Assembly (NCBI GenBank): GCA_963842525.1
Contig: CAWJGT010000027.1
Location: forward strand, 1 to 64,000
Source: an uncultured Holophagales bacterium
GTDB taxonomy: Bacteria > Acidobacteriota > Thermoanaerobaculia > Multivoradales > UBA5704
DNA length: 64,000 bases
Reading direction: 5' to 3'
The notes under the pieces are model-generated. The model had not been told where the DNA came from. It saw nothing but the letters and a program-made list of their open reading frames with translations, and did not search any database. Positions 1,133-64,000 of this stretch are shown here, piece after piece. Each line of letters opens with the position of its first letter. Within the stretch, counting starts at the first letter, position 1. Both the position numbers and the translations under genes were made by a program.

Positions 1133-2047
1133 GCACCTCGCGGCCGTCCTCGAACACGCCAACAAAGGCGGCTCCCATCTCATGATCCTCATGGTCATCG
1201 CCTACTACTGCGACGCGCGCGGCGAGTGGATCGTTGACCAGGCCACGCTTCAGAAGCGCACCCGCTTCAGGCGCCGCCGTGTCCAGCAGCTCCTCGACGA
1301 GCTGGTCAAAGCGGGGAGCTCGCCGTCACGCGCGGCGATGGCCGCGGCAAGCTCTCCAAGCTCTGCCTGCTCATCGGCCCACCCGCTCCCTTCCCCCCTC
1401 TCCCGGTGGAAGGGCGTGCGCTGGGAGAGGGGGGCCAGGGGGGTGAGGGGCTTCCGGAAAAGGGCGCAGGGGAGTGCACCCTTTCCGCCCAAAAGGGCGC
1501 AAGGGAGTGCACCCTTTCGGAGGAAAAGGGCGCAGAGGAGTGCACCCTTTCCGCCCAAAAGGGCGCAGAGGAGTGCACCCTTTCTGCCCAAAAGGGCGCA
1601 GAGGAGTGCACCCTTTCTCACCCCCCGGTCCCCCCTTTTCCCCCAGACCCCCAAATCCCCCCTTACCCCCCAAAAGCAAAAACAAAAAATCAGGAGACCT
1701 TCGGTCTCCGGCCCCTGTCGGGTCCGCAGAGCGGGGTCTTTCGAGCCAACCTTCTGCTCGACGAGGCGGGCATCCCTCGCCCGAGCCCTGCGCAGATCAA
1801 CCTCTGGTCGACGACCCTGGGAGGCATCGAGCCGCTCCTGGCCCTGCTGGGCCGGCTGATCCACGCCGGCCTCGCGACCAAGCGAGAGCCCCACGCCTAC
1901 ATCCACCGGGTCGTCATGGAGCAGGCCGCCAGGCCTGAGCCTGCCCATCCGGCCCGATCCGCCAATCCGATGCGCACCGCCGGAGTGGACGAGCTCCGGC
2001 GACAACAGGCCGCACGAATCATGGCCGGCAAGAAAGGTCACACATGA
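1129..2047 (+). CDS. Phage-type HTH replication initiator with internal iteron repeats (frameshifted in this sequence)
   Basis: N-terminal AVLEHANKGGSHLMILMVIAYYCD..QATLQKRTRFRRRRVQQLLDELVKAG (HTH_36-like); continues in other frames (GELAVTRGDGRG; KGAEECTLSAQ repeats); lies upstream of DnaC/DnaB-like genes. Confidence 0.7.
1391..1449 (+). repeat. REP-like family A copy inside initiator gene
   Basis: cccccctctcccgg..gggagagggggccaggggggtgagg. Confidence 0.85.
1458..1616. repeat. Five 33-bp palindromic iteron-like repeats (putative origin)
   Basis: AAAAGGGCGCA-N6-TGCACCCTTT units start at 1458, 1491, 1524, 1557, 1590; followed by an A-rich tract near 1672-1689. Confidence 0.85.
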
Positions 2048-4278
2048 CACACCACGAAGCTGTCGGATCGCGTTCCCCCTCTCCCGGCGGGGGGCGGTCG
2101 GAAGATGGGAGAGGGGGCCAGGGGGTGAGGTCGCATTCCCCCCTCTCCCGGGGGAAGGGAGTGCGGATGGGAGAGGGGGGCCAGGGGGGTGAGGGTTTGG
2201 GTTCCCCCTCTCCCGTTCGGGGCGGGGGTCCGGCGGACGCACGGGAGAGGGGGCCAGGGGGAGAGGGCTCCCGGCTCAGGTCCTGGCAGTGCACCCGCTG
2301 CCACGAAGACCAAGTCGGCGCCGTCCCCGAAGACGGCCTCTGCCATACCTGCCACGACGCCCAGACAGCCGCCAACGCCTTTACCGAGGCCGACGCCGGG
2401 ATCCCTGAGCGCTATCGCCGCCTCACGCGCGAGAGCTGGACCGCGCGCTTCGAGCGCCCCTGGCCCGAAGCCCTGCAGCACTGGACCGGCACCCCCCATT
2501 GGGTGGCCCTTTGGGGGCCTACCGGCACCGGCAAGACCGGCATTGCCACCGTTCTGCTCGCCGAGCACCTGCGCACAGGCCGCCGTGGTCGCTGGATCTC
2601 CGGCCCCGAGCTCGCGAGGCGCATCCAGCGCGACTTCACAGCCGTCGAAGAAGTCCTCGCCCCGCTCCTGGTCACCCCGCTCCTCGTCCTCGACGAGCCC
2701 CTCACCGGCTCCGCCGCCGACTGGTATATGGACCGGCTGACCCTCATCACCCGCACCCGCGACGACCGCGGCCTGCCCACCGTCCTGACCAGCCAGCTCC
2801 TCCCCGAGCTGCTCTTTAACCCTACCGCCACCTGCCCGCCGCCACTCCTGTCGCGCTGGCTCTCCGGCATCCGCATCCATGACGAGCTCGCCGGCGAGGA
2901 ACGTGCGCCTGAAGGAGGCCTTCTGATGACCAGGCCCAAGCAGCAATTCGTGCCCCACAGCGAAGAAGCCGAACGAGCCGTCCTCGGCGCCCTGCTCCTG
3001 GAGCCCCTGCGCATCGCCCAAGTCCGGACCCGCCTGGAGCCGAGAGACTGGTACGTCGAGCGCAATCGCGTCCTCTACCAGGCCCTCCTCGACGTTGCCG
3101 ACACCGGATCGACGCCCGACCTCCTGACCGTCCAGGCCCACCTCGAGCAGGCCGGCGCCCTGGCCACGATCGGGGGCCCGGCCTACCTCGCCACCCTCGA
3201 CGTGGACCTGCCCGACATCGATCGTCTCGACGAATACGCCGAGATCGTCCGCGAGAGAAGCGTACGGCGCGACCTCATCGCCGGCGCCCAGAAGATCATC
3301 ATCGAGGCCGCCGTCACCGCCCGGCCCGTCGCCGAGTTGCTCTCCGGTCTGCGCGACAGCGCCGACCAGCTCCTCGGCCGCGCCGCCCGGGTCCACTGGA
3401 CAGGCGCAGGCAATGTCCTCAACCGCCTCCTGCTCGGCATCGAGAACGGCCCTCCCGAGGCCCTCCAGGGCCTCAGCACCGGCTATCCGGCCTGGGACCG
3501 GCTCGGCCCCGGCTTCCTCCGCGGCGGCCTCTACGTCCTCGCCGGCCGGCCGGGAATGGGGAAGACCTCCCTAGCCCTCGACCTCACCCGCCACGTCGCC
3601 GTGGATCTACTGCGGCCGGCCGGCGTCTTTTCCCTCGAAATGCGCAGCGACGAGCTGGGCTTGAAGCTCGGCTCCGCCGAAGCCGACGTCGCCGCCCGCT
3701 ACATGAGAGCCGGCCACCTCTCCGGCCGCCAGTGGCAGGACCTCTTCGCAGCCACCCGCCGCATGCTCGCCGCCCCCCTCTACCTCGATGACACCCCAGG
3801 ACTCGTGCTCCGCGACCTCGAAGCCCGGGCCTGGTGGCTCAAGGCCCGGTACCCCGATCTCGCCCTCCTGGTCGTGGACTACCTCCAGCTCGTCAATGCC
3901 GGAATCCGGGTCGAGCAGCGCCGCCTGGAAATCGCCCACATCACCCGGCGTCTCAAAGAGCTGGCCGGCGAGTTGGACGTCGTCGTCCTCGTCCTCTCCC
4001 AGCTCAACAGAGAGCTGACCCGCCGGAGCGACCCCAGGCCGCAGCTCGCCGACCTGGCCGAGTCCGGAGCCATCGAGCAAGCCGCCGACCAGGTCGCCTT
4101 CATCCACCGCCCCGAAGCCTACGAGCCAGACGACGCCGCCCTGCGCGGCCTCGCCGAAATCATCGTGGCGAAGCACCGGCACGGAGAGTCGGGCACCTTC
4201 GAGCTGACCTGGGCCGGCGCCACAACCTCCTTCCGCAACCGTCCAGCGCCGGCCCCAGCCGGACCGGATCCGTTCTGA
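2044..4278 (+). CDS. dnaB: DnaC/IstB-like ATPase followed in frame by DnaB-like replicative helicase (probable separate helicase start at 2926)
   Basis: CxxC..CxxC, GPTGTGKT, LLVLDE; then PHSEEAERAVLG, GRPGMGKTS, VVDYLQL, LSQLNR, DLAESGAIEQAAD, IIVAKHRHG; GGAGG precedes ATG 2926. Confidence 0.9.
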   Translation: MTHHEAVGSRSPSPGGGRSEDGRGGQGVRSHSPLSRGKGVRMGEGGQGGEGLGSPSPVRGGGPADARERGPGGEGSRLRSWQCTRCHEDQVGAVPEDGLCHTCHDAQTAANAFTEADAGIPERYRRLTRESWTARFERPWPEALQHWTGTPHWVALWGPTGTGKTGIATVLLAEHLRTGRRGRWISGPELARRIQRDFTAVEEVLAPLLVTPLLVLDEPLTGSAADWYMDRLTLITRTRDDRGLPTVLTSQLLPELLFNPTATCPPPLLSRWLSGIRIHDELAGEERAPEGGLLMTRPKQQFVPHSEEAERAVLGALLLEPLRIAQVRTRLEPRDWYVERNRVLYQALLDVADTGSTPDLLTVQAHLEQAGALATIGGPAYLATLDVDLPDIDRLDEYAEIVRERSVRRDLIAGAQKIIIEAAVTARPVAELLSGLRDSADQLLGRAARVHWTGAGNVLNRLLLGIENGPPEALQGLSTGYPAWDRLGPGFLRGGLYVLAGRPGMGKTSLALDLTRHVAVDLLRPAGVFSLEMRSDELGLKLGSAEADVAARYMRAGHLSGRQWQDLFAATRRMLAAPLYLDDTPGLVLRDLEARAWWLKARYPDLALLVVDYLQLVNAGIRVEQRRLEIAHITRRLKELAGELDVVVLVLSQLNRELTRRSDPRPQLADLAESGAIEQAADQVAFIHRPEAYEPDDAALRGLAEIIVAKHRHGESGTFELTWAGATTSFRNRPAPAPAGPDPF
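2073..2267 (+). repeat. Three tandem REP-like family A copies in frame at 5' end of DnaC-like gene
   Basis: Three CCCCTCTCCC..GGGAGAGGGGGCCAGGGGG units, no stop in the coding frame. Confidence 0.85.
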
Positions 4279-4661
4279 TGCTGAAACCCGAGCACGCGCG
4301 CGTTCATCTGGCCCGCGTCAATCCTGGCCGCACGCGGTGGGGCTGGCCCGTGGGCCTGCGAGACGGTGCCCTCCTGGCCCTGGTCGCGGCCGGCCTGAGC
4401 GCCGCGGAAATCTCCAGGCTCCGCGCCACCTCGATCACCATGGAGCGGGGGAGGCTCGTGGTCGCGGTCCTGCGGCGCGGCACCGTCCTGCCGATCACGC
4501 TGCCCATGGACCTCGGAGCCCGCCTGCTCGCCTGGCTCTCAGATCGCCGCCTGTGGGGCGCCGACGCACCGGTCTTCACCGGACCGCGCGGGCGGCCGAT
4601 CTCACTGGACGGTCTCTACACAGTCCTGCGGCGATACCGGCGCAGAAGGAGGGACCGCTGA
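4278..4661 (+). CDS. Short tyrosine-recombinase-fold protein lacking catalytic residues
   Basis: GLRDGALLALVAAGLSAAEISRLRATSI resembles integrase box I with R replaced by S; ends before HxxR/Y; TGATG-coupled on both sides. Confidence 0.65.
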   Translation: MLKPEHARVHLARVNPGRTRWGWPVGLRDGALLALVAAGLSAAEISRLRATSITMERGRLVVAVLRRGTVLPITLPMDLGARLLAWLSDRRLWGADAPVFTGPRGRPISLDGLYTVLRRYRRRRRDR

Positions 4662-5065: not shown

Positions 5066-5088
5066 AGAAGCCTGGAGGAGAGGAGACG

Positions 5089-5412
5089 ATGGATATCGGA
5101 GAGCTGTTGGACGCACGCTTTCGGGAGCAGGCCCAGCAGATCGAAGCCCTGCGCCGCGAGCTGGAGGAGTTCAAGCGGCGCCGGCAGGAAGTGCCTGCGG
5201 AGGATTGGGTCACCATCGCGGTGTTCCTGAAGCGGCACGCCGCGCGGTTCACCCTGGGCCAGCTCCGCTGGCTCCTCTTCCACCGGAAGAAGAACGGGCT
5301 CGCGCCCTACGTCAAGAGGCCGGGCAAGACCCTGCTGATCCAGGAGCGCCTGTTCATCGCGGCAGCCCTTCAGCTCGACGTTCCGCATCGCCGCCGAGGC
5401 CGAGCAGCCTGA
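5089..5412 (+). CDS. Small DNA-binding/excisionase-like protein
   Basis: Strong RBS (GGAGGAGAGGAG); basic 107 aa; convergent with integrase. Confidence 0.6.
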   Translation: MDIGELLDARFREQAQQIEALRRELEEFKRRRQEVPAEDWVTIAVFLKRHAARFTLGQLRWLLFHRKKNGLAPYVKRPGKTLLIQERLFIAAALQLDVPHRRRGRAA

Positions 5413-6541
5413 TGAGATAGAACGAGGCGTCGTTGCGATGGCGGGCCTGTTTCGAGTACCTGCGCACCATGATCGGCGAGCGCCAACCGCCGCGCAGCAT
5501 CAGCTCGAGCTCCGAGACCCCGAGCAGCAGCGACATGCAGGCCCACTCATGGCGGAGGTCGTGGAAGCGGAAGTCACGGATCTGGGCCTTCTTCTTGGCG
5601 TACCGCCATTGCCCCATCGGAAACACCGGTAGCCGGCGCTGGTCCTCGCCGCGGACGGCCCACACATACCGGCTGAGGACCGGCTTCGCGGCCTGCGCTC
5701 GCAGCAACTCGCCAGCCAACCCGGGGAAGTAGAGCGTCCGCGCCTCCCCTGACTTGGTGTCCGTGACCTTGCACCGCGGCACACCTGGCCGCATCTGGCC
5801 GGTGAAAGGATCGAGCTCCTGGGGATCGAGCCGCAGATGGGCGCGCTCCATGCTCATCAGCTCGCCCTCGCGGGCCCCGGAGGCGAGGGCGCAGACCGTG
5901 AGAGCGTAGAGCCGTGTGTCGCTGCTGGCCCGCAGGGCGGCCCAAAGGCTCTCCCACTCCTGGACCGTAGCCTCGCGGTCGCGTTCCTCCTCCTGCTCGC
6001 CCTTGGCCTTCTTCCGGCGGCTCCCGGAGTGGAGGGGATTGGCCTGGATCCACTCCCAGTCCACACAGGAAGAGAGCACAGCGGAGAGAGCCGCCTTGTA
6101 GCGGTTCGCGGTCGCGTACTTGACCGGGCGGTCGCCGCCGTGCCCCTGATCCCGAAGAGAGCGCAGATCCTCGCGGACCGTGGACCGGGTCACGTCGCGC
6201 AGGATGCAGGCGCCGCGGCGAGCCTCCCACCAGGTGAGCTGCCGTTCGCGGTTCCGGCGTTCGGAGGCCGCGAGCCTGGGCAGCTCCTCGACGCGATACC
6301 GGGCGACCGCCTCGGCCAGCGTCCGGCGCCGCTCACTGCCCGACAGCCCCTTCCGGAGGTCCTGGCGGAGCTGGTCAAGCAGCTCCCGGGCATCCGTGAG
6401 GCGTTCGCGCGTGAAGCTCTTCGGACCGGCGTAGCCGGGGAACCTGGGCTTGATCTGATAGCCCTCGAGCTTGCCCTCGGCGGTGATCCGCTTGTAGATC
6501 CCTGGGTACTGCGTGCTCTCCAGCCGGCGCTTCCCTGGCAT
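5354..6541 (-). CDS. Tyrosine recombinase/phage integrase
   Basis: Catalytic set R (SGAREGE), K (TKSG), HDLRH, W (GGW), Y (RRY). Confidence 0.95.
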   Translation of the reverse strand: MPGKRRLESTQYPGIYKRITAEGKLEGYQIKPRFPGYAGPKSFTRERLTDARELLDQLRQDLRKGLSGSERRRTLAEAVARYRVEELPRLAASERRNRERQLTWWEARRGACILRDVTRSTVREDLRSLRDQGHGGDRPVKYATANRYKAALSAVLSSCVDWEWIQANPLHSGSRRKKAKGEQEEERDREATVQEWESLWAALRASSDTRLYALTVCALASGAREGELMSMERAHLRLDPQELDPFTGQMRPGVPRCKVTDTKSGEARTLYFPGLAGELLRAQAAKPVLSRYVWAVRGEDQRRLPVFPMGQWRYAKKKAQIRDFRFHDLRHEWACMSLLLGVSELELMLRGGWRSPIMVRRYSKQARHRNDASFYLIRLLGLGGDAERRAEGLPR

Positions 6542-6543
6542 TG

Positions 6544-6565
6544 ACTGTCCCCCAACTGTCCCCCA
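6544..6565. promoter_or_regulatory. Putative integrase arm-type binding sites
   Basis: Tandem direct repeat ACTGTCCCCCA x2 between int and tRNA. Confidence 0.55.
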
Positions 6566-6635
6566 AAGGGGTGTAGGGGTACTCTACCACGACCGCCAGC
6601 TAAGCGCAAGTCGTTGAATCTAAAAGAGGGGGAAG

Positions 6636-6711
6636 TGGTGGGCCGTCAGAGACTCGAACTCTGGACCCGCGGATTAAAAGTCCGCTGCTCTACCAACTGA
6701 GCTAACGGCCC
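6636..6711 (-). tRNA. tRNA-Lys(UUU)
   Basis: Reverse complement GGGCCGTTAGCTCAGTTGGTAGAGCAGCGGACTTTTAATCCGCGGGTCCAGAGTTCGAGTCTCTGACGGCCCACCA; 76 nt cloverleaf, anticodon TTT, encoded CCA. Confidence 0.98.
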
Positions 6712-21835: not shown

Positions 21836-21957
21836 CGCTGGAGAAATTCTATCACCCGTCAACCGTGAACGTCGATCGACGGGCCGTGGATTGACTGGCG
21901 TCCCCGGTGGGGCTAGCGTTACACGACTGGCTGCATCGTTTGCAGGAGGAGGTATGT

Positions 21958-23478
21958 ATGGTGTCCTCGAGATCGCAGGTCCTGTCGGCGGTATTGGGGG
22001 GATGGCTGGCTGTGTCGGCGTGGGCGGCGGAGCCGCCGGCGCCGATCATTGGCGAGACGATCGACGTCCGCGTCGTCAACGTCGAAGCGGTGGTGACGGA
22101 TGAGACGGGCGGGCGGGTGCGCGGGCTTGCTCCGGCCGACTTCCGGCTGCTGGTCGACGGCAAGGAGGTGTCGATCGACTACTTCACCGAGGTGGCCGAA
22201 GGAGAGACGGCTCCGGCGGCGGGAAAGGCAGGGGGCCCGGTGGCGCCGCTCCCTCCGGACGAGCAGGTCGGACGGTCCTATCTGGTCTTCATCGACGAGT
22301 CGTTCTCGGTCGCGGAGCAGCGCGACGGCATCCTCACCGCTCTGGAGCAGGGGCTGGCGCGGCTCGGCCCCGCCGACCAGATGGCGGTTCTGGCCTTCGA
22401 CGGCAAGGAGATCGACGTCCTCAGCCCCTGGACCTCGGACACCGCGGCGCTCGCCCGGGTCCTGCGCGAGGCCCGGCAGCGCGAAACGCGCGGCAGCCAG
22501 CTCCTGGCCCAGCACCGCAGTGTGGAAGGGGATGTCGACATGCTGGTCGAAATGGCCGAGCAAGGCTTGCTGGAAGGCGACCAGCTCCTCGAGGCCAACG
22601 CCTACCTGGAGAAACGGGTCAGCCCGGAAGCGCGCTCCCAGCTCGGCCGGACCGCGCCCGCCATCGCGGCGGCCCTGCGCGCGTTCGAGGCGCCTCCCGG
22701 GCGCAAGGTCATGTTCCTCCTCTCCGCCGGCTGGTCGCTGACGGTTGCGCCCCAGCTCTTCGGACCGGTGCTGGAGGCCGCCAACCGGCTCGGCTATACC
22801 CTCTATCCGGCCGACGCCTCGGTGCACACGCCCGAGGTCCTCAAGTTCCTCGACGCCTTCGCCGCGCGGACCGGGGGCAAGGTCGTGACCGCGGACCTGA
22901 AGAGCAACGCCTTCGAGCAGGTCCTGAACGACTCCGGCACCTACTACTGGCTCGGCTTCACGCCGTCCTGGAAGGGCGACAACCGCCGCCACGCGGTCCG
23001 CGTCGAGGTGCGCCGGCCGGGCCTGCGCGTGCGGGCGCGGAGCGGCTTCTCCGACCTGGCCCGTCCCACGGAGGCCGGGCTCCGCGCCGAGGGCATCCTG
23101 CTCTTCGGCGGCAGCTCGCAGGACAAGCGGCTGGTCGTCCAGATCGGCCAGCCCCGTCCCGCCGGACGCAAGGAGGTGGAGCTGCCGGTCAGCCTGAGCG
23201 TCCCCATCGACGCGCTCGTCCTCACCCAGGGCGAGGGAGGCTATGTGGCCGAGCTGCCGCTCGCGGTCTCCGCCATCGACGCCAAGGGAGGGCGCGCCGA
23301 CCTCCCGGGCATGCGCCTGAAGATCGTCCTGCGCCAGATCCCGAAAGGGGGAGGGCTCGCGCGGTTCCAGACCGTCGTGAAGGTCCGGCGCCTGGAGCAG
23401 CGGCTGGTCTTCACCGTCGAGGATGCGACGCGCGGGTCCTTCCTCTGGGGCGAGGCGAGGTACACGCCTGCTCCCTAG
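21958..23478 (+). CDS. VWA-related Acidobacterial domain protein (paralog 1)
   Basis: Signal peptide; ETIDVRVVNVEAVVTD..GL..DF; PGRK; YYWLGFTP. Confidence 0.85.
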   Translation: MVSSRSQVLSAVLGGWLAVSAWAAEPPAPIIGETIDVRVVNVEAVVTDETGGRVRGLAPADFRLLVDGKEVSIDYFTEVAEGETAPAAGKAGGPVAPLPPDEQVGRSYLVFIDESFSVAEQRDGILTALEQGLARLGPADQMAVLAFDGKEIDVLSPWTSDTAALARVLREARQRETRGSQLLAQHRSVEGDVDMLVEMAEQGLLEGDQLLEANAYLEKRVSPEARSQLGRTAPAIAAALRAFEAPPGRKVMFLLSAGWSLTVAPQLFGPVLEAANRLGYTLYPADASVHTPEVLKFLDAFAARTGGKVVTADLKSNAFEQVLNDSGTYYWLGFTPSWKGDNRRHAVRVEVRRPGLRVRARSGFSDLARPTEAGLRAEGILLFGGSSQDKRLVVQIGQPRPAGRKEVELPVSLSVPIDALVLTQGEGGYVAELPLAVSAIDAKGGRADLPGMRLKIVLRQIPKGGGLARFQTVVKVRRLEQRLVFTVEDATRGSFLWGEARYTPAP

Positions 23479-23482
23479 AGCG

Positions 23483-25099
23483 ATGGCCTCGCCACGGGGC
23501 CATCTCGACGTGCCGGTACCCGGCGCTACCGTGGGTCCGGGAGCCTTCCAGCTCCTCGGCTGGGCGGCCGACGGTCGCGGTTCCGTTGCGGTCGACATCG
23601 AGATCGACGGCGCGCTCGTGGGCCGCGCCAACATCGGCCTGTCGCGACCCGACGTGGCAGAGGCCCTGGGCCATGCCAATGCCGCCTTCGCGGGATGGGA
23701 ATGCATGCTCGACCTCCATCGCCTCGCGGCCGGCCGCCCGTCCCTGCGGATCGATGCCTTCGCCCAGGGCCGGGACGGCGGACGGACCCTTATCGGCACC
23801 GTCGCCATCGCCGTCGAAACAGCGGCACCGGCGTTCAGCGAGTCTCCTGCGGCGGCTCGCGCCGGTGAGCTGCGGCGCCGTCTCGAGCTCCTCCTCGCAC
23901 GGCACCCCACGCCGCCACCACCGCCGCCGTCGCCGGCGAGGCCCGTGAGGATCCTCGCCGTCCTCCATAGCCTCGACCGCGGCGGCAGCCAGCTCATCCT
24001 GCTCGAGCGGTTGCGCGAGCTCGCTGCCGCCGGGGAAGCGGAGGCGATGGTCGTCAGCCAGACCGACGGCCCGCTGCGCGACGAATTCGAAGCCAGCGGC
24101 TTCCCCTGCCACGTCAGCGGCTGGCTGGTCCAGCCGGATCCCGTTCTCTACGAGGGGAAGATGGCCGAGCTGGCCATGTGGTGCCGGCCGCAAGGTTTCG
24201 AGCTGGTCCTGGCGAGCACGATCGGCGTCAGCCCTGCCATCGACCTGGCGCTGCGGCTCGGCCTGCCGAGCCTGTGGTTGATCTACGAGCGGCCGGTCTC
24301 CAAACATCACTTGTCCCCGTTCCTCTCGATGCGATGGCCTGCCTATGCGATCGCGCAGGCGGAAGATGCGCTGCGCCGCTGCTCGCTGATCGTCTTCGAT
24401 TCGGATGCCTGCCGGCGCGACTACCTCCACCGGGCACCTCCCGAGCGGCTGCTGACCATCCCGGGGGCGATCGACCTGCGAGCCATCGATCGCTTTCGGG
24501 CCGGCTTCGACCGCGCGGCGGCACGCCGCGCCCACGGCCTGCCCGACGATGCCGTGCTGGTGCTCGGTCTGGGCTCGATCCTCGTCCTCAAGGGAACGCC
24601 GCTGCTGCTGCAGGCGTTCGCCACCCTCGCCGGCGAGCGCGCCGACCTGCGGCTGGCGCTGGTGGGCTCGCGCCGCGACGCTCTGGCGGAGGCTCTCGAG
24701 CGGTTTGTTGCCGCGCGGGGGCTCGGCGATCGCGTCCGCATCGAGCCGATGGGGGCGGCGGCGTACGACTGGCTGGCGATGGCCGACCTCCTGGTCTGCC
24801 CCAGCCATCGCGAGTCGATGCCGCGCACCGTCATGGAGGGGATGGCGTTCGAGGTCCCGGTGGTGGCTTCCGCCGTGGGCGACGTGCCGAGCGTCCTCGT
24901 CGACGGCACCACCGGCTGGCTCATACCGCCGAGCGATCCCGCCGCGCTGGAACAAGCGATGCGCCGCGCGCTCGCCGCTTCACCCGAGCAGCGAGGCCGG
25001 ATGGTCGAGGCAGCCGCCCGCCATGTCCGGGAGCATCGCGATGCACCCCGGGCGGCTGCGAGCTTCGCGGAGGCGGTGCGGCGTGTCGCCGTGCGATGA
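23483..25099 (+). CDS. Glycosyltransferase family 4 with N-terminal Ig-like domain
   Basis: HSLDRGGSQ, KG, ESMPRTVMEGMA, VVASAVG. Confidence 0.85.
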   Translation: MASPRGHLDVPVPGATVGPGAFQLLGWAADGRGSVAVDIEIDGALVGRANIGLSRPDVAEALGHANAAFAGWECMLDLHRLAAGRPSLRIDAFAQGRDGGRTLIGTVAIAVETAAPAFSESPAAARAGELRRRLELLLARHPTPPPPPPSPARPVRILAVLHSLDRGGSQLILLERLRELAAAGEAEAMVVSQTDGPLRDEFEASGFPCHVSGWLVQPDPVLYEGKMAELAMWCRPQGFELVLASTIGVSPAIDLALRLGLPSLWLIYERPVSKHHLSPFLSMRWPAYAIAQAEDALRRCSLIVFDSDACRRDYLHRAPPERLLTIPGAIDLRAIDRFRAGFDRAAARRAHGLPDDAVLVLGLGSILVLKGTPLLLQAFATLAGERADLRLALVGSRRDALAEALERFVAARGLGDRVRIEPMGAAAYDWLAMADLLVCPSHRESMPRTVMEGMAFEVPVVASAVGDVPSVLVDGTTGWLIPPSDPAALEQAMRRALAASPEQRGRMVEAAARHVREHRDAPRAAASFAEAVRRVAVR

Positions 25100-25256
25100 C
25101 TTGGCCGGAGGTGTCCTCTCCTGGAGACACCCCGTACCCTCGCGGGGTCTCCGCCCGGTGGTACGATCCCCCGAAATACCTGATTCTGCGACCTTTTCGT
25201 CGCCGGCACCCTCTTTGCTAAGCGCTCAAGCGTTTCCAGAGGAGGAATGAGGAGGA

Positions 25257-27032: not shown

Positions 27033-27141
27033 GAGCTCGTCCGGCCGGGTAGACGTGCGAAACAAACCCCCTCGCGGGTTTGTTGTGGTTTGTTGTCAGA
27101 AGGGAAACCGCGCGGCCGTGGGCCGCCCCAGGGAGGCATTC

Positions 27142-28803: not shown

Positions 28804-28837
28804 CGCGTCCCGTATAATCCCCCGAGAGAGCGAACCT

Positions 28838-35185: not shown

Positions 35186-35675
35186 TGGATGCCTTTCCAG
35201 GACTTCTGGATCGGTTCCACGTAATTCTGGACGCGTTCCAAAATTTCTGGATCGATTCCAAATTTTCTGTACCGGTTCCAAAAAACCTGGAGGGCTTCCC
35301 AAATTTTCTGGACCGGTTCCACGGAGCTCTGGACGCGTTCCAAATTTTCTGGACGCCTACCAAATTTTCTGTACCGGTTCCAAAAAATCTGGGAAGCCTT
35401 CCAAATTTTCTGGACCGGTTCCACGGAACTGTGGACGCGTTCCAAATTTTCTGGATCGATTCCAAAAAACCCGAAGGCCTTTCCAAAATTTCTGGATCGG
35501 TTCCACGGAATCTGGAACGCCTTCCAAAATTTCTGAATCGATGCAGCGTGACTCTGGATGCGTTCCAAAATTTCTGGACGGGTTCCAGGTGACTCTGGAT
35601 GCCTGCCAAATTTTCTGCAGCGGTTCCACGTGACCCTGGGCGCGTTCCAACGGACCGGTCCACGGACCGGTTCCC
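35186..35675. repeat. Degenerate tandem array of 20/21-bp TTCCA-N5/6-TCTGGA units
   Basis: Over 20 units, e.g. ttccaaaatttctggatcgg / ttccacgtaattctggacgcg; AT-richer than flanks. Confidence 0.85.
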
Positions 35676-42049: not shown

Positions 42050-42298
42050 GCGCCCCGTTCACGGGGCGCTGGCACATAGCCCCGGGTTTCAAACCCGGGG
42101 TGCGGAGGCCCCCAACCCATTCCTGTGCCCCTTCAGGGGCAATGGCATGGGTGGAGGGGAAGCCGGCGGTGCTCTGGCGGTGGCGGGCCGGTTCGCCACC
42201 TCCCGTGCCTATGCCCCTGAAGGGGCTCGAAAACGAAATCTGGCCTCGCAACCCCGGGTTGAAACCCGGGGCTAGGTGCCGGCGCCCACGAGGGGCGC
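42050..42298. repeat. REPIN-like inverted doublet (GCCCCGGGTTTCAAACCCGGGG)
   Basis: Palindromes at 42077-42100 and 42252-42274 in inverted orientation with nested GCCCC..GGGGC hairpins. Confidence 0.8.
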
Positions 42299-43744: not shown

Positions 43745-43864
43745 CCTCCTGTAGGGGCAACCCTTGTGGTTGCCCTGCACCGCCTGCCTCTGCGGTGGGA
43801 AAATGCGCAGCGGCCGCCGCGTGGCAAGACCGCGGGCAACCACAAGGGTTGCCCCTACAGGAGG
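43745..43864. repeat. GTAG-family REP inverted doublet
   Basis: GTAGGGGCAACCCTTGTGGTTGCCC ... GGGCAACCACAAGGGTTGCCCCTAC. Confidence 0.88.
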
Positions 43865-49240: not shown

Positions 49241-50151
49241 TGGCCGGCCGCGCGGGGACCGTAGCCTTCCTCGGCCGGCCGAACGCCGGCAAGTCGACGC
49301 TGATGAACCGCCTCCTGGGCGAGAAGGTGGCGATCGTCTCCGACAAGCCGCAGACCACGCGGCACCGCCTGGTGGGCATCCTCTCCGGGGTGCGCGGCCA
49401 ACTGGTCTTCTATGACACGCCGGGCATCCACAGGCCGCTGCACCGTCTCAACCGGCAGATGGTGCGCTATGCCCTGGACGCCCTGAACGACGCCGACGTG
49501 GCCTGCCTGCTGGTCGACGCCAGCCAGAAGTTCGGCTCGGGCGACGCCTACATGCTCGACCTCATCGGCAAGCTGGAGGACAAGGCCACCGAGCAGCGGG
49601 TCCTGGTCCTCAACAAGGTCGACCTCCTGCGGGATAAAAAACAGCTCCTGCCGCTCATGGAGCGGTATGGCCGAACCGGCCTCTTCGCCGAGATCGTGCC
49701 GGTCAGCGCGCGCACCGGCGACGGCTGCGACCGCCTGCTCGACGTCCTGTGGGACAAGCTGCCCGAGGGGCCGCCGCTCTACGACCCGGAGCTGCTCACC
49801 ATCCATCCCGAGCGCTTCCTGGCCGCCGAGCGCATCCGCGAAAAAGTCCTGGAGCTGACCAGCGAAGAGCTGCCGTACACCACCGCCGTGGTCCTCGACC
49901 GCTGGGAGGACGACGCGGAGAAGGGGCTGACCCTCATCTATGCCAGCATCCTCGTGGAGCGTCCCAGCCAGAAGAAGATCGTCGTCGGACGCCAGGGGCA
50001 GATGATCAAGAACATCGGCACCGCCGCCCGGCTCGACCTGGAAGAGTTCCTCGGCCACCGGGTCTACCTCGACCTCCACGTCCGCGTCGAGCCCGACTGG
50101 CGCGAGGACAAGGCGCTGCTGGCGAGTCTGGACAGGGATGTGGAGCTGTAA
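49240..50151 (+). CDS. era: GTPase Era
   Basis: GRPNAGKSTL, KPQTTR, DTPG, NKVD, KH domain. Confidence 0.96.
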   Translation: MAGRAGTVAFLGRPNAGKSTLMNRLLGEKVAIVSDKPQTTRHRLVGILSGVRGQLVFYDTPGIHRPLHRLNRQMVRYALDALNDADVACLLVDASQKFGSGDAYMLDLIGKLEDKATEQRVLVLNKVDLLRDKKQLLPLMERYGRTGLFAEIVPVSARTGDGCDRLLDVLWDKLPEGPPLYDPELLTIHPERFLAAERIREKVLELTSEELPYTTAVVLDRWEDDAEKGLTLIYASILVERPSQKKIVVGRQGQMIKNIGTAARLDLEEFLGHRVYLDLHVRVEPDWREDKALLASLDRDVEL

Positions 50152-50152
50152 A

Positions 50153-50361
50153 ACCTCACCCCCTGTCCCCCTCTCCCATCGCCCCCCCTGCCGCCGGGAG
50201 AGGGGGGACGTAGAGGAGCCGATATACGGCGAATCTGGCAGCATGCGATCCGGAAAGTTGGCGGAAGAGAAATCGGAACGACCTTGCCTCGAACGCTTCG
50301 CATGCGTCCCCCCTCTCCCGGTCGGTGGGGGGGCGATGGGAGAGGGGGACAGGGGGTGAGG
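50153..50361. repeat. REP-like family A inverted doublet
   Basis: cctcaccccctgtccccctctccc ... gggagagggggacagggggtgagg. Confidence 0.88.
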
Positions 50362-50392
50362 TTTGGCACGAGACGTGCGTCTCCAACCGGAT

Positions 50393-52322: not shown

Positions 52323-52327
52323 GGGAC

Positions 52328-52483
52328 CCTCACCCCCCTGGCCCCCCTCTCCCATCCGCACTCCCACCCTCCGGGAGAGGGGGGAAGAAACCCGGCCTGA
52401 GAAGAGGGGATTTCCGGGAGAGTCTTTGCTCCCCTCTCCCGGTGGTCGGGGAGTGCGGATGGGAGAGGGGCCGGGGGTGAGGG
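52328..52483. repeat. REP-like family A inverted doublet
   Basis: ccctcacccccctggcccccctctccc ... gggagaggggccgggggtgaggg. Confidence 0.88.
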
Positions 52484-52508
52484 CCTCTACGATAGACTAC
52501 GCCCCGCC

Positions 52509-56061: not shown

Positions 56062-56297
56062 GCCCCAGAGGGGCCTATGGCATGTAGCCCGGGGTCAGAG
56101 CGACGAAGGAGCGGCGACCCCGGGTGCAAGGAGAAAAATATTTTCAAGCCCCGGCAGGGGCGGCAGCAGATTTGGCAGGGCACGGGTTTGCTGCCGCCCC
56201 TCTGGGGCTTGGAAACGAAATCGGTCTCCCTTACCCGGGGTCGCCGCTCCTTCGTCGCTCTGACCCCGGGCTACACGCCTGAGCCTCTCCGAGGCTC
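56062..56297. repeat. REPIN-like inverted doublet
   Basis: GTAGCCCGGGGTCAGAGCGACGAAGGAGCGGCGACCCCGGGT and its exact reverse complement. Confidence 0.88.
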
Positions 56298-57895: not shown

Positions 57896-57951
57896 CGTGC
57901 GTGGTGGGGACCCGGCCGGGGGGCCAGGGGGTGAGGTACCATGCCCCCGCC

Positions 57952-59258: not shown

Positions 59259-59320
59259 CGCCCGGCTCCGACTTCGCATAGCTTTTTCGAAAGCTTCATC
59301 CCAATCCAAGGAGGCGAGCA

Positions 59321-60070
59321 ATGCGTCGCGCGTGGTGGATTTGTCTCCTCGTACTCGTGCTGACTCCTGGGCCGGCTCCGGCCCAGGAAACCGCCCTCCC
59401 GGCGGATCTCTGCCTGGAGGACGAAATAGCGGCCGAGCTGCCGAAGCTCCCGCTCCCAGATCTGCTCGAGACCCCAGAGCCTCTCTTCCTCCAGTCGGCC
59501 TGTGGCTCGACCACCTGTCGGGCCGGCCAGACATGCCTCACCTGCGGAACGCGGCGAGGCTGCCAACCGCAAGGCTCTTCCTGCTGCGGCTCGAGCTTCT
59601 GTTCTCCGGGTCATGGGTGCCTCACTTGTGGAACCCAACGGAGCTGCCAGCCGCAGGGCTCGTCCTGCTGCGGCTCGAGCTTCTGTTCTCCGAGTCATGG
59701 GTGCCTCACCTGTGGAACCCAGCGGAGCTGCCAGCCGCAGGGCTCGTCCTGCTGTGGCTCGAGCTTCTGTGCTCCGGGCAAGGCGTGCCTCACCTGTGGA
59801 ACCCAGCGGAGCTGCCAGCCGCAAGGCTCGTCCTGCTGTGGCTCGAGTTTCTGTGCTCCGGGTCATGGGTGCCTCACCTGTGGAACCCAACGGAGCTGCC
59901 AGCCGCAGGGCTCGTCCTGCTGTGGCTCGAGCTTCTGTGCTCCGGGCAAGGCGTGCCTCACCTGTGGAACCCAACGGAGCTGCCAACCGCAGGGCTCGTC
60001 CTGCTGTGGCTCGAGCTTCTGTGCTCCGGGTCAGATGTGTGACTCCCGAAGGCGGTGCGTGCCCCGCTGA
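59321..60070 (+). CDS. Secreted Cys-rich tandem-repeat protein
   Basis: AAGGAGG RBS; signal peptide; acidic pro-segment; six 28-aa (84-bp) repeats. Confidence 0.85.
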   Translation: MRRAWWICLLVLVLTPGPAPAQETALPADLCLEDEIAAELPKLPLPDLLETPEPLFLQSACGSTTCRAGQTCLTCGTRRGCQPQGSSCCGSSFCSPGHGCLTCGTQRSCQPQGSSCCGSSFCSPSHGCLTCGTQRSCQPQGSSCCGSSFCAPGKACLTCGTQRSCQPQGSSCCGSSFCAPGHGCLTCGTQRSCQPQGSSCCGSSFCAPGKACLTCGTQRSCQPQGSSCCGSSFCAPGQMCDSRRRCVPR

Positions 60071-60077
60071 CGCGGCG

Positions 60078-61004
60078 TCAGAATTGGCCGACGAATCCGA
60101 TCTCCGGCTCCAACCGGTAGCCGGTCCGCTGCTCGACGACCTCCTGGATGTGGGCGATCAGCGCCCGCACGTCGGCGGCGGTGGCACCCCCGGCGTTGAT
60201 CAGGATGTTGGCGTGCCGGTGGGTGACCATGGCGCCGCCGATGCGGCAACCTTTGAGGCCGCACTGGTCGATCAGGCGGCCGGCGCCGATCCCTTTGATC
60301 TTCTTGAAGATGGAGCCGGCGCTCGGCTCGGTGTCGAGCGGCGGATGGCGCTCGCGGCGCCATTCCAGGTTCTCCTCGACGATCCGGCGCATCCTCTCCG
60401 GCTCGCCCGGCTCGAGCTGGAAGGTGGCGGCGAGGACGATGTCGCGGCGGTGGTGGAGGATGGAGTCGTCGTAGCCGAACTGGAAGTAGTCGACGCCGAC
60501 CGTCTTGCGCGCTCCCTCTGCGGTGAGGATGTCCGCGGAATGTGTCACCTCCGCGATGAACATGGTCCGCTCCCGGGCAGGCGCCGGAGCCAGGAAGTGG
60601 AGGTTCTGCCAGAGGGCGCCGCCCACGGTCGACGGGATGCCAGGGTAGTGCTCCAGCCCGGAGAGGCCGTGCGACACGGCCACCTCGATCAGGTCGGGCC
60701 AGACCACCGCACCGCTCTCGGACCAGACGCGCCGCTCCTCGGAGAGGACCCGCATCGCCCCGGCGGCGTTGCGGATCACCAGGCCGCGGAACCCGCGGTC
60801 GCCGATCAGGATGTTGGCCCCGAGCCCCAGCAGGAACCAGGGAAGGCCCACCTCGCGCACCGCCGTCACCGCCCGCGCCAGCTCGTCCGCGCTGCGCGCC
60901 TCGTAGTAGAGGTCGGCCGGGCCGCCGATCCTGAAGGTGGTGAAAGGGGCGAGGACAACGCCCTCCTGGAGGCGGTCGGGGCCGAGGAGATCCTGAATCC
61001 TCAC
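60078..61004 (-). CDS. murB: UDP-N-acetylenolpyruvoylglucosamine reductase
   Basis: TTFRIGGPA, GANIL, GIPSTVGG, SAGSIFK, HANIL, LEPEI. Confidence 0.93.
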   Translation of the reverse strand: MRIQDLLGPDRLQEGVVLAPFTTFRIGGPADLYYEARSADELARAVTAVREVGLPWFLLGLGANILIGDRGFRGLVIRNAAGAMRVLSEERRVWSESGAVVWPDLIEVAVSHGLSGLEHYPGIPSTVGGALWQNLHFLAPAPARERTMFIAEVTHSADILTAEGARKTVGVDYFQFGYDDSILHHRRDIVLAATFQLEPGEPERMRRIVEENLEWRRERHPPLDTEPSAGSIFKKIKGIGAGRLIDQCGLKGCRIGGAMVTHRHANILINAGGATAADVRALIAHIQEVVEQRTGYRLEPEIGFVGQF

Positions 61005-61051
61005 CCCCTGTCCCCCTCTCCCATCGCACTCCCCCCGACCGGGAGAGGGGG
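60999..61051 (-). repeat. REP-like family A copy overlapping murB start
   Basis: cctcaccccctgtccccctctccc..gggagagggggg. Confidence 0.85.
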
Positions 61052-61167
61052 GATCACCCGATTAGGGATCTCAGCGGTGTTCATGTGATCTCATTGCGGC
61101 CTTCCTCCGGGGGAAGGGGTTCCATGTGTTGCCATTTTGGACCAATTCTCGCCAGAAAGCGTCGAGC

Positions 61168-61203
61168 TGTGTGACCCGTGTGTGACCCAATTTATGCTAT
61201 ACT
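61168..61203 (+). promoter_or_regulatory. Arm-type repeat (TGTGACCC x2) and extended -10 (TGCTATACT) of integrase
   Basis: tgtgacccgtgtgtgaccc; TATACT ends 7 nt before ATG 61211. Confidence 0.55.
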
Positions 61204-61210
61204 TACGCCC

Positions 61211-62515
61211 ATGAGCTACAACATCAAATTTGAGGATCGCACCCTGCGCGGTCTCCGCGTTCCCGATGGCAAGGACAGGCAGGAATGGAGTGACACTGTG
61301 GTCCCGGGGCTTCGCTTCCGCAAGAGCGTTAAGGGACATGGCTCCTTCTCCGTGGTCTACAGGGTCAAGGGACAGGACAAGCAGGATCGCCGGACCATCG
61401 GACCCTTCCCCCGCGTCTCCCTCGCTCAGGCCCGCGAGGAGACTCGACAGGATCTTAACGCCGCCAGCTCGGGACGGGACCCGAAGAAGCTTCGGACGGC
61501 TCCTCCCGAGGCTCCCGAGGAACACCCGATGACCTTCGCGGAGCTCTTCGAGCTTTACATGGAGCGCCACGCTCGCGATCATCTCGCGACTTGGTACGAC
61601 GTCCAGCGGCGGGTCCGCAAGGATGTGATTCCCGTCATCGGTCAGATGCCCGCCGGCGAGGTGCGCAAGCGCCATCTCCATCTGGTCATCGACCGGCTCG
61701 TCACCGGCGGGCACGCCGTCAGCGCTCGCGGCCTGCTGTTTGTGATCTCGGCTATCTTCACCTGGGCCGAGGGGCGCGAGCTCGTCGAGTACAACCCGGT
61801 CCGGCGCTTCCCCTACCCCAAGCCGGCCGCCCCTCCGGAACGCAGGAGCCTCTCCGATGACCAGCTCCGGGCACTGTGGTTCGCCCTCCTGGAGATCGCT
61901 GACCAGCCGGTGCCCGACAAGCAGGAGGAGCTGCACAACGGCCAGTTCACTACGACCCGGGATCTATTCGCTTTGGTGGTGCTGACGCGGCTCCTGCTGG
62001 GCCAGCGCACCACCGAAACGGTCGGCATGCGCCGCCAGGACCTCGAAGCTCAGTGGTGGAATCTGCCGGGCTACATTGGCCGGCGACGGTATACGAAGAC
62101 AGGACGGGATCACCGGGTGCCGCTGGTTCCTCTGTGGAGCGAGTATGTGCTGCCGCGCGTCGAGAGGCTGACCGCCGGGCGGCCGTATGTCTTCCCCAGC
62201 GATCGGCTGCAGGACCAGCACCTTCACGCCGAGAGCATCACGTCGTTCTGTTCCCGGGTGTCGGCCAAGGTGGGTTTCCCCTTCGTGGCTCGTAACCTGC
62301 GGACGACCTTCCTGACTTCCCTGGCTCGGCTTCGTGTGCCGCAGGAGGTCCGGCGACGGCTGGTCAACCACAGTGATGGGACCATCGAGACGATCCACTA
62401 CAATCTGTATGACTACGACGCCGAAAAGTGGGCGGCCGGGCTGCGTTGGGATGCCCATCTTCGGAGCATCTTTTTCGGCGAGACGGCTCAGGTAGCGCCT
62501 TCTCAGGCCGCCTAG
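61211..62515 (+). CDS. P4-type tyrosine integrase with arm-binding domain
   Basis: WSDTVVPGL..IGPFPRVSLAQAR; R (GQRTTE), K (TKTG), RNLR, VNH, HYN. Confidence 0.92.
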   Translation: MSYNIKFEDRTLRGLRVPDGKDRQEWSDTVVPGLRFRKSVKGHGSFSVVYRVKGQDKQDRRTIGPFPRVSLAQAREETRQDLNAASSGRDPKKLRTAPPEAPEEHPMTFAELFELYMERHARDHLATWYDVQRRVRKDVIPVIGQMPAGEVRKRHLHLVIDRLVTGGHAVSARGLLFVISAIFTWAEGRELVEYNPVRRFPYPKPAAPPERRSLSDDQLRALWFALLEIADQPVPDKQEELHNGQFTTTRDLFALVVLTRLLLGQRTTETVGMRRQDLEAQWWNLPGYIGRRRYTKTGRDHRVPLVPLWSEYVLPRVERLTAGRPYVFPSDRLQDQHLHAESITSFCSRVSAKVGFPFVARNLRTTFLTSLARLRVPQEVRRRLVNHSDGTIETIHYNLYDYDAEKWAAGLRWDAHLRSIFFGETAQVAPSQAA

Positions 62516-62521
62516 GTGGCT

Positions 62522-62590
62522 AAAACCGGCTGCCTGCTTCCGGTTTTTCTCCGGAAAACCGGCTGCGGGCAGCCGGTTTTTTCCGGAAAG
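62522..62590. repeat. Two palindromes at 33-bp spacing (AAAACCGGCTG..CCGGTTTT)
   Basis: Units start at 62522 and 62555. Confidence 0.7.
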
Positions 62591-62593
62591 TGG

Positions 62594-62845
62594 CTAGGCG
62601 GCCCAGTCGCGCCGGCCTTCTTGCCATTCGCGGAGCTTGTCCACGCGAAAGGCTTCCCGCCCTGGGCTGAGAGTGTCCGGGGCGGGGAATCGGCCGGCCG
62701 CGATTTCCCGCCGCAACGTGGACCGGGACAGGCTTGACCAGCTGATTACCTCGGGCCAGGTCATGAACCGAGGGAGCACCTCACGGACGTTGGACAATGT
62801 GTGGCGGCTCGGCAAGGACTGCTGCGGTCTGCGGTCGTTTTTCAT
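62594..62845 (-). CDS. AlpA-family excisionase/regulator
   Basis: EVISWSSLSRSTLRREIAAGRFPAP..W. Confidence 0.85.
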   Translation of the reverse strand: MKNDRRPQQSLPSRHTLSNVREVLPRFMTWPEVISWSSLSRSTLRREIAAGRFPAPDTLSPGREAFRVDKLREWQEGRRDWAA

Positions 62846-62989
62846 GGTTTTCTCTGGCTTGATCCTGAATGCTACACTCCGCACAGTGTATGTGTAGATC
62901 GACATTGATGTCAAGAGGAGAGCAGATGTTCCGGGCTTTTTCTGGCAGAGGGCTTGCATATGCGGCCCGCAACATTTACCATGTAGTTC

Positions 62990-63370
62990 ATGACTGCGAC
63001 AGATCCCTTTGAAGGTCTAGGACAAGCGCTGGCCCACCTTCGGGAGCGGGCCGGCTTCGCGACGCAAAAGGATGCGGCAGAGGCTCTTGGCTTCGACCAG
63101 GGCCAATTGTCGCGCTGGGAGAATGAGAATCCTCGGCCCACGCTCGAGAACCTCGGCCGCCTGCTTGCGGCTTACGGAGTTGGCCTGGCGGAGCTGGTGG
63201 CGCTCTTAGGAGAGGTCCGCCGGCCGAAGCGGAAGACTGTGGATGGACTGACCTATGAGGCCGAGATGGCCCGGTTGAACGAGCTGCTTCGGCAAATGGT
63301 GGAAAACCAAGCCGAAGCAGAGAGCCGATTGAAGGCGCTCGAGGTGCTGGTGCGCGGGGGCAAGGGATAG
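62990..63370 (+). CDS. XRE-family HTH repressor with coiled-coil tail
   Basis: LRERAGFATQKDAAEALG..LSRWEN..PTLENL. Confidence 0.88.
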   Translation: MTATDPFEGLGQALAHLRERAGFATQKDAAEALGFDQGQLSRWENENPRPTLENLGRLLAAYGVGLAELVALLGEVRRPKRKTVDGLTYEAEMARLNELLRQMVENQAEAESRLKALEVLVRGGKG

Positions 63371-63382
63371 CCCGCCAGGCCG

Positions 63383-63572
63383 AAAGGGTGCAGCCTGCTG
63401 CGCCCTTTTCTGCCGAAAGGGCGCAATCCGCTTCGCCCTTTTCCCGAGAAAGGGCGCAATCGGCTGCGCCCTTTTCCCGAGAAAACGTGCAACGGGCTGC
63501 ACCTTTTTCTGCGAGAAAACGTGCGATGGGCCGCGCCTTTCCGCGAGAAACGCGCGGGGGGCCGCACCTTTT
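63383..63572. repeat. About six 33-bp palindromic repeats matching the iterons at 1458-1616
   Basis: AAAGGGTGCA-N6-TGCGCCCTTTT units at 63383, 63416, 63449, 63482, ~63515, 63548; further copy at 63886-63911. Confidence 0.85.
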
Positions 63573-64000
63573 CCGCGCGGGGACGGCCCAGAGGCACGGC
63601 GCTTTTCAGTGCAAGCGCTTGCGCCGGAGGACGGGACGGGGCAGCCAGGCCCTAGATAGGGCCATAGGTTCGCTACGCGACACCCTGCCCCCTTTATAGG
63701 TTAAATGTCGGACAAGGCCAGGCCCTGCTCTACCTGGAAAAGAGCTGGGCGGCTGGGACGGACATGGAGGGTCTTCGGGCGGAGCTGAGATGGACCGGCG
63801 TAGCGGTAGGGCCTCAACTGCCCGCCTGGATACTCCCAAAAAACGTGCACTCGGCTTCCCGTGCACTCGGCTTCCCCTTTTCTTGAAAAGGTGCAATGGG
63901 CTTCACCTTTTCCTGGGGTGCTTGCAAGAGAGCGCCGGCCTCTCTAGGCTGAGCGGCTCAGAATGAACGTTGATCTCTGGCCGCAGCGGCTCTTCTGGAT

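Follow-up and report, generated by a model that had tools for sequence, protein, structure and literature searches.

Palindromic 33-bp iterons on two islands of an uncultured Holophagales bacterium: a putative origin within an initiator gene and its intergenic counterpart

Introduction

What would an array of replication iterons be doing on a genomic island in which no replication initiator is in view? The question is raised by a stretch of 64,000 nucleotides (the window) from an uncultured Holophagales bacterium (assembly GCA_963842525.1, contig CAWJGT010000027.1, positions 1 to 64,000), which has a mobile island at each end, each carrying 33-base repeats of one family. On the left, the repeats lie within a gene for a replication initiator resembling the O protein of phage lambda; on the right, they occupy intergenic DNA downstream of a gene for an XRE-family regulator. 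A prediction made without database searches, here called the sequence-only reading, had proposed that the right array is an origin or decoy for the initiator of the left element, or the relic of a related rep gene. We find that the two arrays belong to one site family. For the right array, we favour, at about even confidence, its being an origin or control region bound by an initiator that is encoded beyond the window or supplied in trans.

The two arrays share one site family

A search of the window for AAAGGGYGCA-N6-TGCRCCCTTT, allowing up to three mismatches, returned 10 sites, every one of them at 1459-1616 or 63383-63911, against a mean of 0.00 sites in 100 dinucleotide-preserving shuffles. 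The five sites on the left match without mismatch, and the five on the right have 0, 1, 0, 3 and 3 mismatches. The arrays are mutually inverted, being 74-81% complementary over 103-132 nt in inverted alignment as opposed to 62-64% in direct alignment. The first unit on the right (R1) equals the reverse complement of the left units at 20 of 20 arm bases, or at 22 of 26 bases once the 6-bp spacer is counted, the spacer alone differing. These results confirm that a 33-bp palindromic iteron with identical arms is shared, as the sequence-only reading had claimed. They also show that the motif is not, within this window, the generic scattered repeat that the same reading had named as the outcome that would speak against it.

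The underlying hairpin design (AAA, a 7-bp GC-rich stem around a loop of 4-8 nt, TTT) gave 12 hits in the window, all 12 inside three arrays, the third of which is described below, and none in the 54 kb of chromosome between the islands (6.7-62.5 kb). Because of this distribution, the design is seen to belong to these elements and not to their host.

A genome collection scanned with the pattern of a single unit yielded at least 120 loci from many phyla, with one site in 117 of the 120 listed. Among these listed loci, 119 are unrelated places (117 with a single site and 2 with two sites far apart), and the sole relative is L002, an 11.5-kb contig from a Thermoanaerobaculia metagenome-assembled genome (MAG). 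Tandem arrays at a 33-bp pitch occur, among the matches listed, in the window and in L002 alone. A single unit is a common hairpin; the left and right arrays represent one specific site family.

The left array lies in the middle of a split initiator gene

L002 carries an intact, 293-aa homologue of the left initiator (312-1193, minus strand) with six units in mid-gene. This protein matches PHROG 391 (E 4.6e-8) and PHROG 8540 (E 7.8e-5), both described as 'replication initiation O-like', as well as Pfam HTH_36 at 26.0 bits (cut-off 25); the N-terminal part encoded in the window reaches 16.7 bits against the same cut-off of 25. A search with the L002 protein returned 110 homologues, the few named ones coming from Thermoanaerobaculia MAGs, and 96 of the 110 went into a family hidden Markov model (HMM), with which all six translated frames of the window were searched. 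The model identifies a lambda-O-like initiator gene at 1122..2047 (plus strand) in two pieces: fragment 1092-1856 matches HMM positions 4-69 (E 8e-28; N-terminal part), and fragment 1238-2044 matches positions 101-275 (E 2e-81; C-terminal part). The corresponding reading frames, 1122-1859 and 1238/1406-2047, are different, and comparison with the intact L002 gene places a 1-nt gap, and hence the frameshift, near 1315, together with an insertion of ~65 nt that carries a repetitive extragenic palindromic (REP)-like element. The sequence-only reading was right to place the array in mid-gene within an initiator; its single open frame at 1129-2047 did not hold. As assembled, the reading frame is not intact, with sequencing error as a possible alternative, and the out-of-frame N-terminal product has an entry of its own in the protein collection (P0110).

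The left array itself (1458..1617, plus strand) comprises five units of the form AAAGGGCGCA-N6-TGCACCCTTT at a 33-bp pitch, with the unit sequence AAAAGGGCGCA-gaggag-TGCACCCTTT and a linker of 6-7 nt; Tandem Repeats Finder reports 4.8 copies of a 33-bp period with 90% matches over 1458-1617. In the frame of the gene, the units read as EKGAxECTLS repeats and separate the N-terminal from the C-terminal domain of the initiator. Just upstream, and also inside the gene, lies the REP-like palindromic element (1391..1447; repeat families D6/D7 and I11-I13), which is missing from the matching place in L002.

Downstream of the units, a C-rich tract of low GC content occupies 1618..1720 (plus strand; GC 0.53, GC skew -0.88). 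The drop to 0.53 is accompanied by a strong excess of C over G at 1630-1719, and the tract is not AT-rich in absolute terms. It contains a hairpin with a 7-bp stem (GGAGACC-TTC-GGTCTCC, 1693-1709) and a 22-nt core (1631-1652) that is identical in the window and L002, the surrounding genes being ~73-83% identical. A single open frame of 744 codons follows (2044..4278, plus strand), in which Pfam and PHROG matches identify a DnaC/IstB-like helicase loader and a DnaB helicase. This is an in-gene origin architecture of lambdoid layout; the left array is probably an origin within an O-like initiator gene, and binding of its units by the initiator is predicted.

There is no stop between the two parts of the loader-helicase frame, and a GAAGGAGG motif lies just upstream of an internal ATG of the helicase part, such that the frame could encode a fused loader-helicase or two overlapping products.

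In-gene arrays are common among homologues of the initiator

By a test of our own, 90 of the 110 homologues have a linker with an 11-residue period, which corresponds to the 33-bp period of the DNA. The other 20 failed the test; one of these, P0057, is plainly without an array. Several types of linker peptide occur among the homologues (for example KGEAEC[TA]LS, KPAAESQFS, KGGADAPLS and KCAAHDAFS). A 50-member profile retrieved 11,480 representatives at E <=0.001, and 140 new, more distant ones were examined, of which 31 have periodic linkers (19 of period 7, 7 of period 11 and 5 of period 6, the last being a proline-rich tract). Phage and plasmid collections gave weak matches to the N-terminal domain only (36-38% identity over 67-90 residues), and the solved structures searched gave no significant match. 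Two different paralogues of the family, P0028 and P0044, are listed with longest contigs of equal length (8,381,596 nt); several elements of the family may thus share one genome.

The right array holds two unit types in intergenic DNA

The right array (63383..63572) runs antisense to the left one and consists of six units, R1-R6; a period search delimits it as 63382-63577, with a period of 33-34 bp and 79% matches. R1-R3 are of the left-origin type. Against units of the two in-gene arrays they agree at 21-25 of 26 bases, as compared with 19-25 between the in-gene arrays themselves, and a single base of 26, spacer included, separates R2 from one L002 unit. On these comparisons, common descent of the right units with the in-gene units is far more likely than convergence.

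A second cluster is formed by R4-R6 and a distal unit, F2, which share 18-23 of 26 bases among themselves and follow the variant consensus AAAA[C/G]GTGC[A/G]-N6-...CACCTTTT (units at 63482, 63516, 63547 and 63886). These variants are dyad-symmetric at 9 of 10 positions in R4, 7 of 10 in R5, 7 of 10 in R6 and 9 of 10 in F2, and four of the five arm positions at which R4 differs from R3 make up two mirror-image pairs. Symmetry kept in this manner speaks for a constrained dimer site or hairpin and against free decay. What the sequence-only reading had described as decay along the array is in part, then, this second variant.

Altogether, the right units form two sets, 6 + 2, with a pitch of ~33 bp, around a spacer of ~260 bp (63573..63837). 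The spacer contains a 12-bp palindrome, GCAAGCGCTTGC, and reaches a local GC minimum of 0.53 at 63690-63749. The second set (63838..63911) holds variant units, the first with a 16-bp internal duplication and the second reading AAAAGGTGCA-ATGGGC-TTCACCTTTT.

A third array, of two units at the same 33-bp pitch (62522..62589), lies where the integrase and alpA-like genes of the right island converge. Its units, AAAACCGGCT-N6-(A/T)(G/T)CCGGTTTT, represent a further type, AAAACCGG (62522-62580), which has the 10-6-10 design of the others around a different core, AAAACCGGCT; one of its spacers, GCCTGC, is that of R1. Translated, the array reads KTGxxxPVF and resembles the first 20 residues of family member P0081, a link that is suggestive only, since it is the sole such case among 250 family proteins compared.

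A stretch of ~105 nt in the spacer (63724-63828) is 76% identical to L002 6755-6859 and has the same orientation relative to the units in both places; the L002 copy lies ~5.5 kb upstream of the initiator gene and adjoins a REP-like element and a low-GC island. On inspection of the alignment the stretch has no coding look on either strand, and a two-sequence consensus fold with 5 compensated pairs of 28 is insufficient grounds for naming it an RNA. Operator sites for the XRE protein were considered and set aside: the units lie downstream of the XRE gene and match the in-gene sites of the initiator family.

No initiator is encoded around the right array within the window

As the sequence-only reading had stated, the right array comes after the XRE gene, and no initiator is visible with it. 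There is no rep coding around it: the family HMM matches the repeat linker only (positions 91-151, minus-strand fragment 62991-63605, E 5e-9), with no N- or C-terminal domain, and when 60.9-64 kb was compared with the left 7.2 kb, both as DNA and in translation, the arrays and REP-like elements alone emerged. Through R1-R4, the minus-strand frame reads EKGAARCTFS-REKGAADCALS-REKGEADCALS-AEKGAAGCTLS. A stop near 63606 closes this frame, which also extends antisense across the XRE gene; for these reasons, and given the linker-only match, we reject the possibility, raised against itself by the sequence-only reading, that the array is the tail of a minus-strand rep open reading frame (ORF). A different ORF starts 52 nt after the last unit (63963..64000, plus strand, 12 codons visible) and continues past the window end, so that the right island's own initiator may lie just out of view. 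The collection entry for P0110 points to a contig of 65,586 nt, by which this contig appears to extend at most 1,586 nt past the window.

Some right-island units fold as terminator-like hairpins

Folded as RNA, R1 (-23.9 kcal/mol, z -3.8), R3 (-19.1 kcal/mol, z -3.2) and unit B of the third array (-26.6 kcal/mol, z -5.0) form strong hairpins followed by U-runs, and they lie 6-14 nt past the stops of the XRE, integrase and alpA-like genes. R2, R4 and the left in-gene units fold weakly (z -1.1 to -1.6, with about -1.5 for the left units), the left ones because of a C/A mismatch. A simple scan for a terminator consensus flagged R4 alone. A terminator role for the right units, alongside or instead of initiator binding, is plausible; as RNA, the best units would in addition function as terminators where the XRE, integrase and alpA-like genes end. 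Weak Rfam matches across the arrays were dismissed as hairpin noise, and a transfer RNA alone reached the Rfam threshold over the window.

The two islands and their surroundings

That transfer RNA, tRNA-Lys (UUU) at 6636..6711 (minus strand), probably marks both the place of integration and the right-hand border of the left island, in which a gene for a helix-turn-helix protein is found between the helicase frame and the gene for a tyrosine integrase (5354..6541, minus strand). The right island begins after murB (60078-61004). Its first gene encodes a P4-type tyrosine integrase (61178..62515, plus strand) with Arm-DNA-bind_3, Phage_int_M and catalytic domains. The gene at 62594..62959 (minus strand) encodes an AlpA-like or excisionase-like regulator, identified by matches to PHROG 66 (E 6e-9) and to Pfam Phage_AlpA (E 0.0024, which falls below the curated cut-off), and the XRE-family regulator encoded at 62990..63370 (plus strand) resembles repressor and CII-like regulators. 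The alpA-like gene is convergent with the integrase gene, and the combination by which satellites are recognised, an integrase and an AlpA-type regulator at one island end, is present. GC content falls from ~0.69 to 0.62-0.64 across 61-64 kb, and just 2.9 kb of this island lie inside the window.

Between the islands are ordinary chromosomal genes, among them glyS, an era-like GTPase gene, a glutamate dehydrogenase gene and murB. The two integrases differ, as had been predicted: they share 26% identity over 238 residues (E 0.023), and the Arm-DNA-bind_3 and Phage_int_M domains are found in the right one and not in the left. Because chromosomal genes lie in between and the integrases are so distant, these are two separate islands. 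A single element or an assembly artefact covering both was considered and rejected, since chromosomal genes intervene and the arrays are just 74-81% alike.

The REP-like palindromes mentioned above belong to a family of ~55-60 nt (CCCCCTCTCCCGG...GGGAGAGGGGGCCAGGGGGTGAGG) that is scattered in intergenic DNA, with one copy inside the left initiator gene. Copies occur at 381-440, 1391-1447, 2075-2266 (three copies), 50151-50210, 50305-50364, 52326-52387, 52427-52485, 57919-57948 and 60996-61053, and at 22-77, 2543-2598 and 6987-7035 of L002, where identity with the window is up to 96%. Together with L002 itself and the named homologues, these shared elements suggest that the window comes from a Thermoanaerobaculia-like genome.

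The window holds several other repeats and loci. An intergenic array at 35186-35655, with ~22 units of ~20.5 bp (TTCTGGAnCGnTTCCAaaatt) that have a palindromic core, lies in a stretch of 58% GC and looks like an array of partition sites or binding sites. The interval between the glutamate dehydrogenase gene and murB holds an 84-bp unit in six tandem copies (59416-60087, 92% matches). Four adjacent ORFs of ~520-590 codons at 21907-30592 have repeated blocks in common (families D4, D5, D8, D13 and D17) and no Pfam match at E <=1e-5; they look like a cluster of tandem paralogues. On the minus strand at 35898-40137, a SIR2_2-domain protein (38221-40137) adjoins an 834-aa protein without a Pfam match, and this pair, in the lower-GC stretch at 35-42 kb, may be a defence locus. 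Three pairs of near-perfect inverted repeats at 42064-42287, 43745-43864 and 56079-56279, with arms of 31-47 nt that are 88-100% complementary and enclose 58-142 nt, could be elements of the miniature inverted-repeat transposable type or large hairpins.

Discussion

We propose that both arrays are iterons of one family of lambda-O-like initiators carried by integrative elements of Thermoanaerobaculia-like bacteria. The origin of this family would lie in the linker-coding middle of the initiator gene and would comprise two to six palindromic units of 10-6-10 design, spaced at 33 bp or some three helical turns, with a dimer of the N-terminal winged-helix domain presumably binding each of them. 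The C-rich low-GC tract with its short hairpin would come after the units, and the loader and helicase genes after that. The left array would be an in-gene origin of this type, the gene around it carrying a frameshift in the present assembly. The right array would be an intergenic copy of the site family on a second island, working as an initiator-binding region, either an origin or a replication-control locus. Its initiator would be of the same recognition class, and would come from the gene that leaves the window or in trans from a rep-carrying element. We favour this reading because near-perfect units occur without coding flanks, because the variant units are symmetric, because the two-set layout resembles that of the phage-inducible chromosomal islands (PICIs) discussed below, and because an ORF lies next to the array.

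A number of observations weigh on the other side. There is no initiator around the right array, where the family model recognises the linker and neither terminal domain, and the one co-resident initiator that can be seen has a frameshift. The ORF at 63963, as far as its 12 visible residues go, is unlike the N-termini of 250 family proteins, the best ungapped match being 5 of 12. The conserved C-rich post-iteron tract is absent on the right, its sole match in the window being at 1631-1652, and the right spacer, with a GC content of 0.53-0.57, is not strongly AT-rich. R5 and R6 are poor, and the pitch slips to 34 and 32 bp. The spacers and inter-unit linkers of the right array are as alike as its arms, and conservation therefore does not single out the arms. 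Finally, no second array outside an initiator gene was found, the comparison being with one relative locus, L002, which has none.

Known systems offer partial parallels. In lambdoid phages, according to PMC7466680, the origin lies in the middle of gene O and consists of iterons and an AT-rich tract, with four or six iterons, extra ones adding residues to O. The left family is similar in that its N-terminal domain matches PHROG O-like initiator families, its repeats lie in mid-gene and lengthen the protein, and the number of units varies (two to six here; four or six in lambdoid phages). A tract of lower GC content likewise follows the units and is followed in turn by helicase-loading genes. 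It differs in its units, which are 26-bp 10-6-10 palindromes at a 33-bp pitch, those of lambda O being shorter than 26 bp, and in the post-unit tract, which is C-rich with a GC content of 0.53 and not AT-rich. The partners here, encoded in a single frame, are a DnaC-like loader and a DnaB belonging to the element, in place of lambda P, the host is a high-GC, Thermoanaerobaculia-like bacterium, and the repeats are predicted, from their sequence, to be binding sites.

PICI origins, as presented in PMC6092414, lie just 3' of the island's own pri-rep gene, and their repeat sets flank a stretch of lower GC content. With PICIs, the right island shares an integrase and AlpA-like gene and two repeat sets around a lower-GC stretch; it differs in that no pri-rep gene stands between the regulators and the repeats. 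Other differences are that its repeats come from an O-like family whose origin is normally in-gene, and that packaging or interference genes are not visible in the 2.9 kb inside the window.

Initiator-binding arrays without origin function are found in plasmid copy-control loci, such as incA of P1. Plasmids that carry oop with the ori-lambda iterons ITN3-4 block lambda-type phages, an effect termed the 'inhibition phenotype' in PMC3349717. By analogy, the right array, which lies apart from an initiator gene, could sequester an initiator of its own class or pair with it; the known examples reside on the initiator's replicon or on laboratory plasmids, whereas the present array is on a separate chromosomal island. 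Among plant single-stranded DNA viruses, satellites and genome components share the Rep-binding iterons of their helper and are replicated in trans. Those systems use rolling-circle replication in eukaryotic hosts, and the resemblance is one of analogy only.

Alternative explanations

The alternative that survives best, at a chance that we put well short of even, is that the right array and the third array at 62522 are leftovers of in-gene origins. Their coding flanks would have been lost by recombination or deletion, and the arrays would have no role in replication, persisting by chance or as useful terminator hairpins at gene ends. In this family the array is normally in-gene (90 of 110 homologues), and EKGAxxCxLS can still be read four times in the minus-strand frame across R1-R4, with a match to the family profile at E 5e-9, although an open frame is the automatic result of DNA similarity and is not independent evidence. 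The declining quality of units along the right array, with its slipping pitch, and the missing post-iteron tract would both be expected of remains, and the left initiator gene is itself decaying. The strong hairpins and U-runs of R1, R3 and unit B at gene ends, set against the weak folding of the left in-gene units, would suit a second career as terminators. Yet the flanks hold no trace of the well-conserved N- and C-terminal domains while three units remain near-perfect, and the variants have changed in mirror-image pairs that keep their symmetry. Two or three unit types within one 1.4-kb stretch would, moreover, require several independent leftovers, and all of the arrays sit neatly in intergenic DNA.

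The helper-satellite or decoy relationship suggested by the sequence-only reading, in which the right island has no initiator of its own and either relies for replication on that of an element with a rep gene, for instance the left one, or soaks that initiator up, we regard as unlikely. It draws on the identity of the R1 arms with the left units, on the presence of more than one unit type on the right island, and on the lack of an initiator in the visible 2.9 kb of that island, and interference has a precedent in the oop and ori-lambda iteron plasmids (PMC3349717). The left initiator, being frameshifted as assembled, is a doubtful helper, however, and the right island extends past the window with an ORF beside its units. 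In addition, the characterised bacterial phage satellites P4, SaPIs and PLE carry their own initiators (PMC7145576). A related possibility, which we rate as slightly more doubtful again, is that the right island is a satellite or decoy without its own initiator that has gathered sites for several recognition classes of O-like initiators: the left type, the AAAA[C/G]GTGC variant and the AAAACCGG type.

Convergence, by which the right units would be bidirectional terminator hairpins of an ordinary kind and their likeness to the left iterons accidental, can appeal to how common the single unit is (at least 120 loci in unrelated phyla, against ~2 expected by chance in 596 Gb by our own arithmetic), but is very improbable given the confinement of 33-bp-pitch tandem arrays to the window and L002 among the matches listed, the agreement of a right unit with an L002 unit at 25 of 26 bases with its spacer, and the absence of the hairpin design from the host's 54 kb between the islands.

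Implications

Should the right array be a leftover, or belong to an initiator encoded outside the window, the finding would be an ordinary one. If instead the island has gathered sites of several recognition classes, it would be copied by whichever rep-carrying element is active, or would blunt that element, and would parallel, at the level of replication, those islands that carry the transfer origin of a helper. An island that depends on copied sites for the initiator of another element, or interferes with that initiator through them, would represent a different route by which mobile elements exploit or exclude one another. The firm part of the finding is that the architecture of a lambda-style origin, placed within the initiator gene and built of palindromic units every 33 bp, occurs widely across an uncultured lineage of high GC content. 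The 11-residue repeat of the linker provides a simple way to read the origin sequence of such an element from its protein alone.

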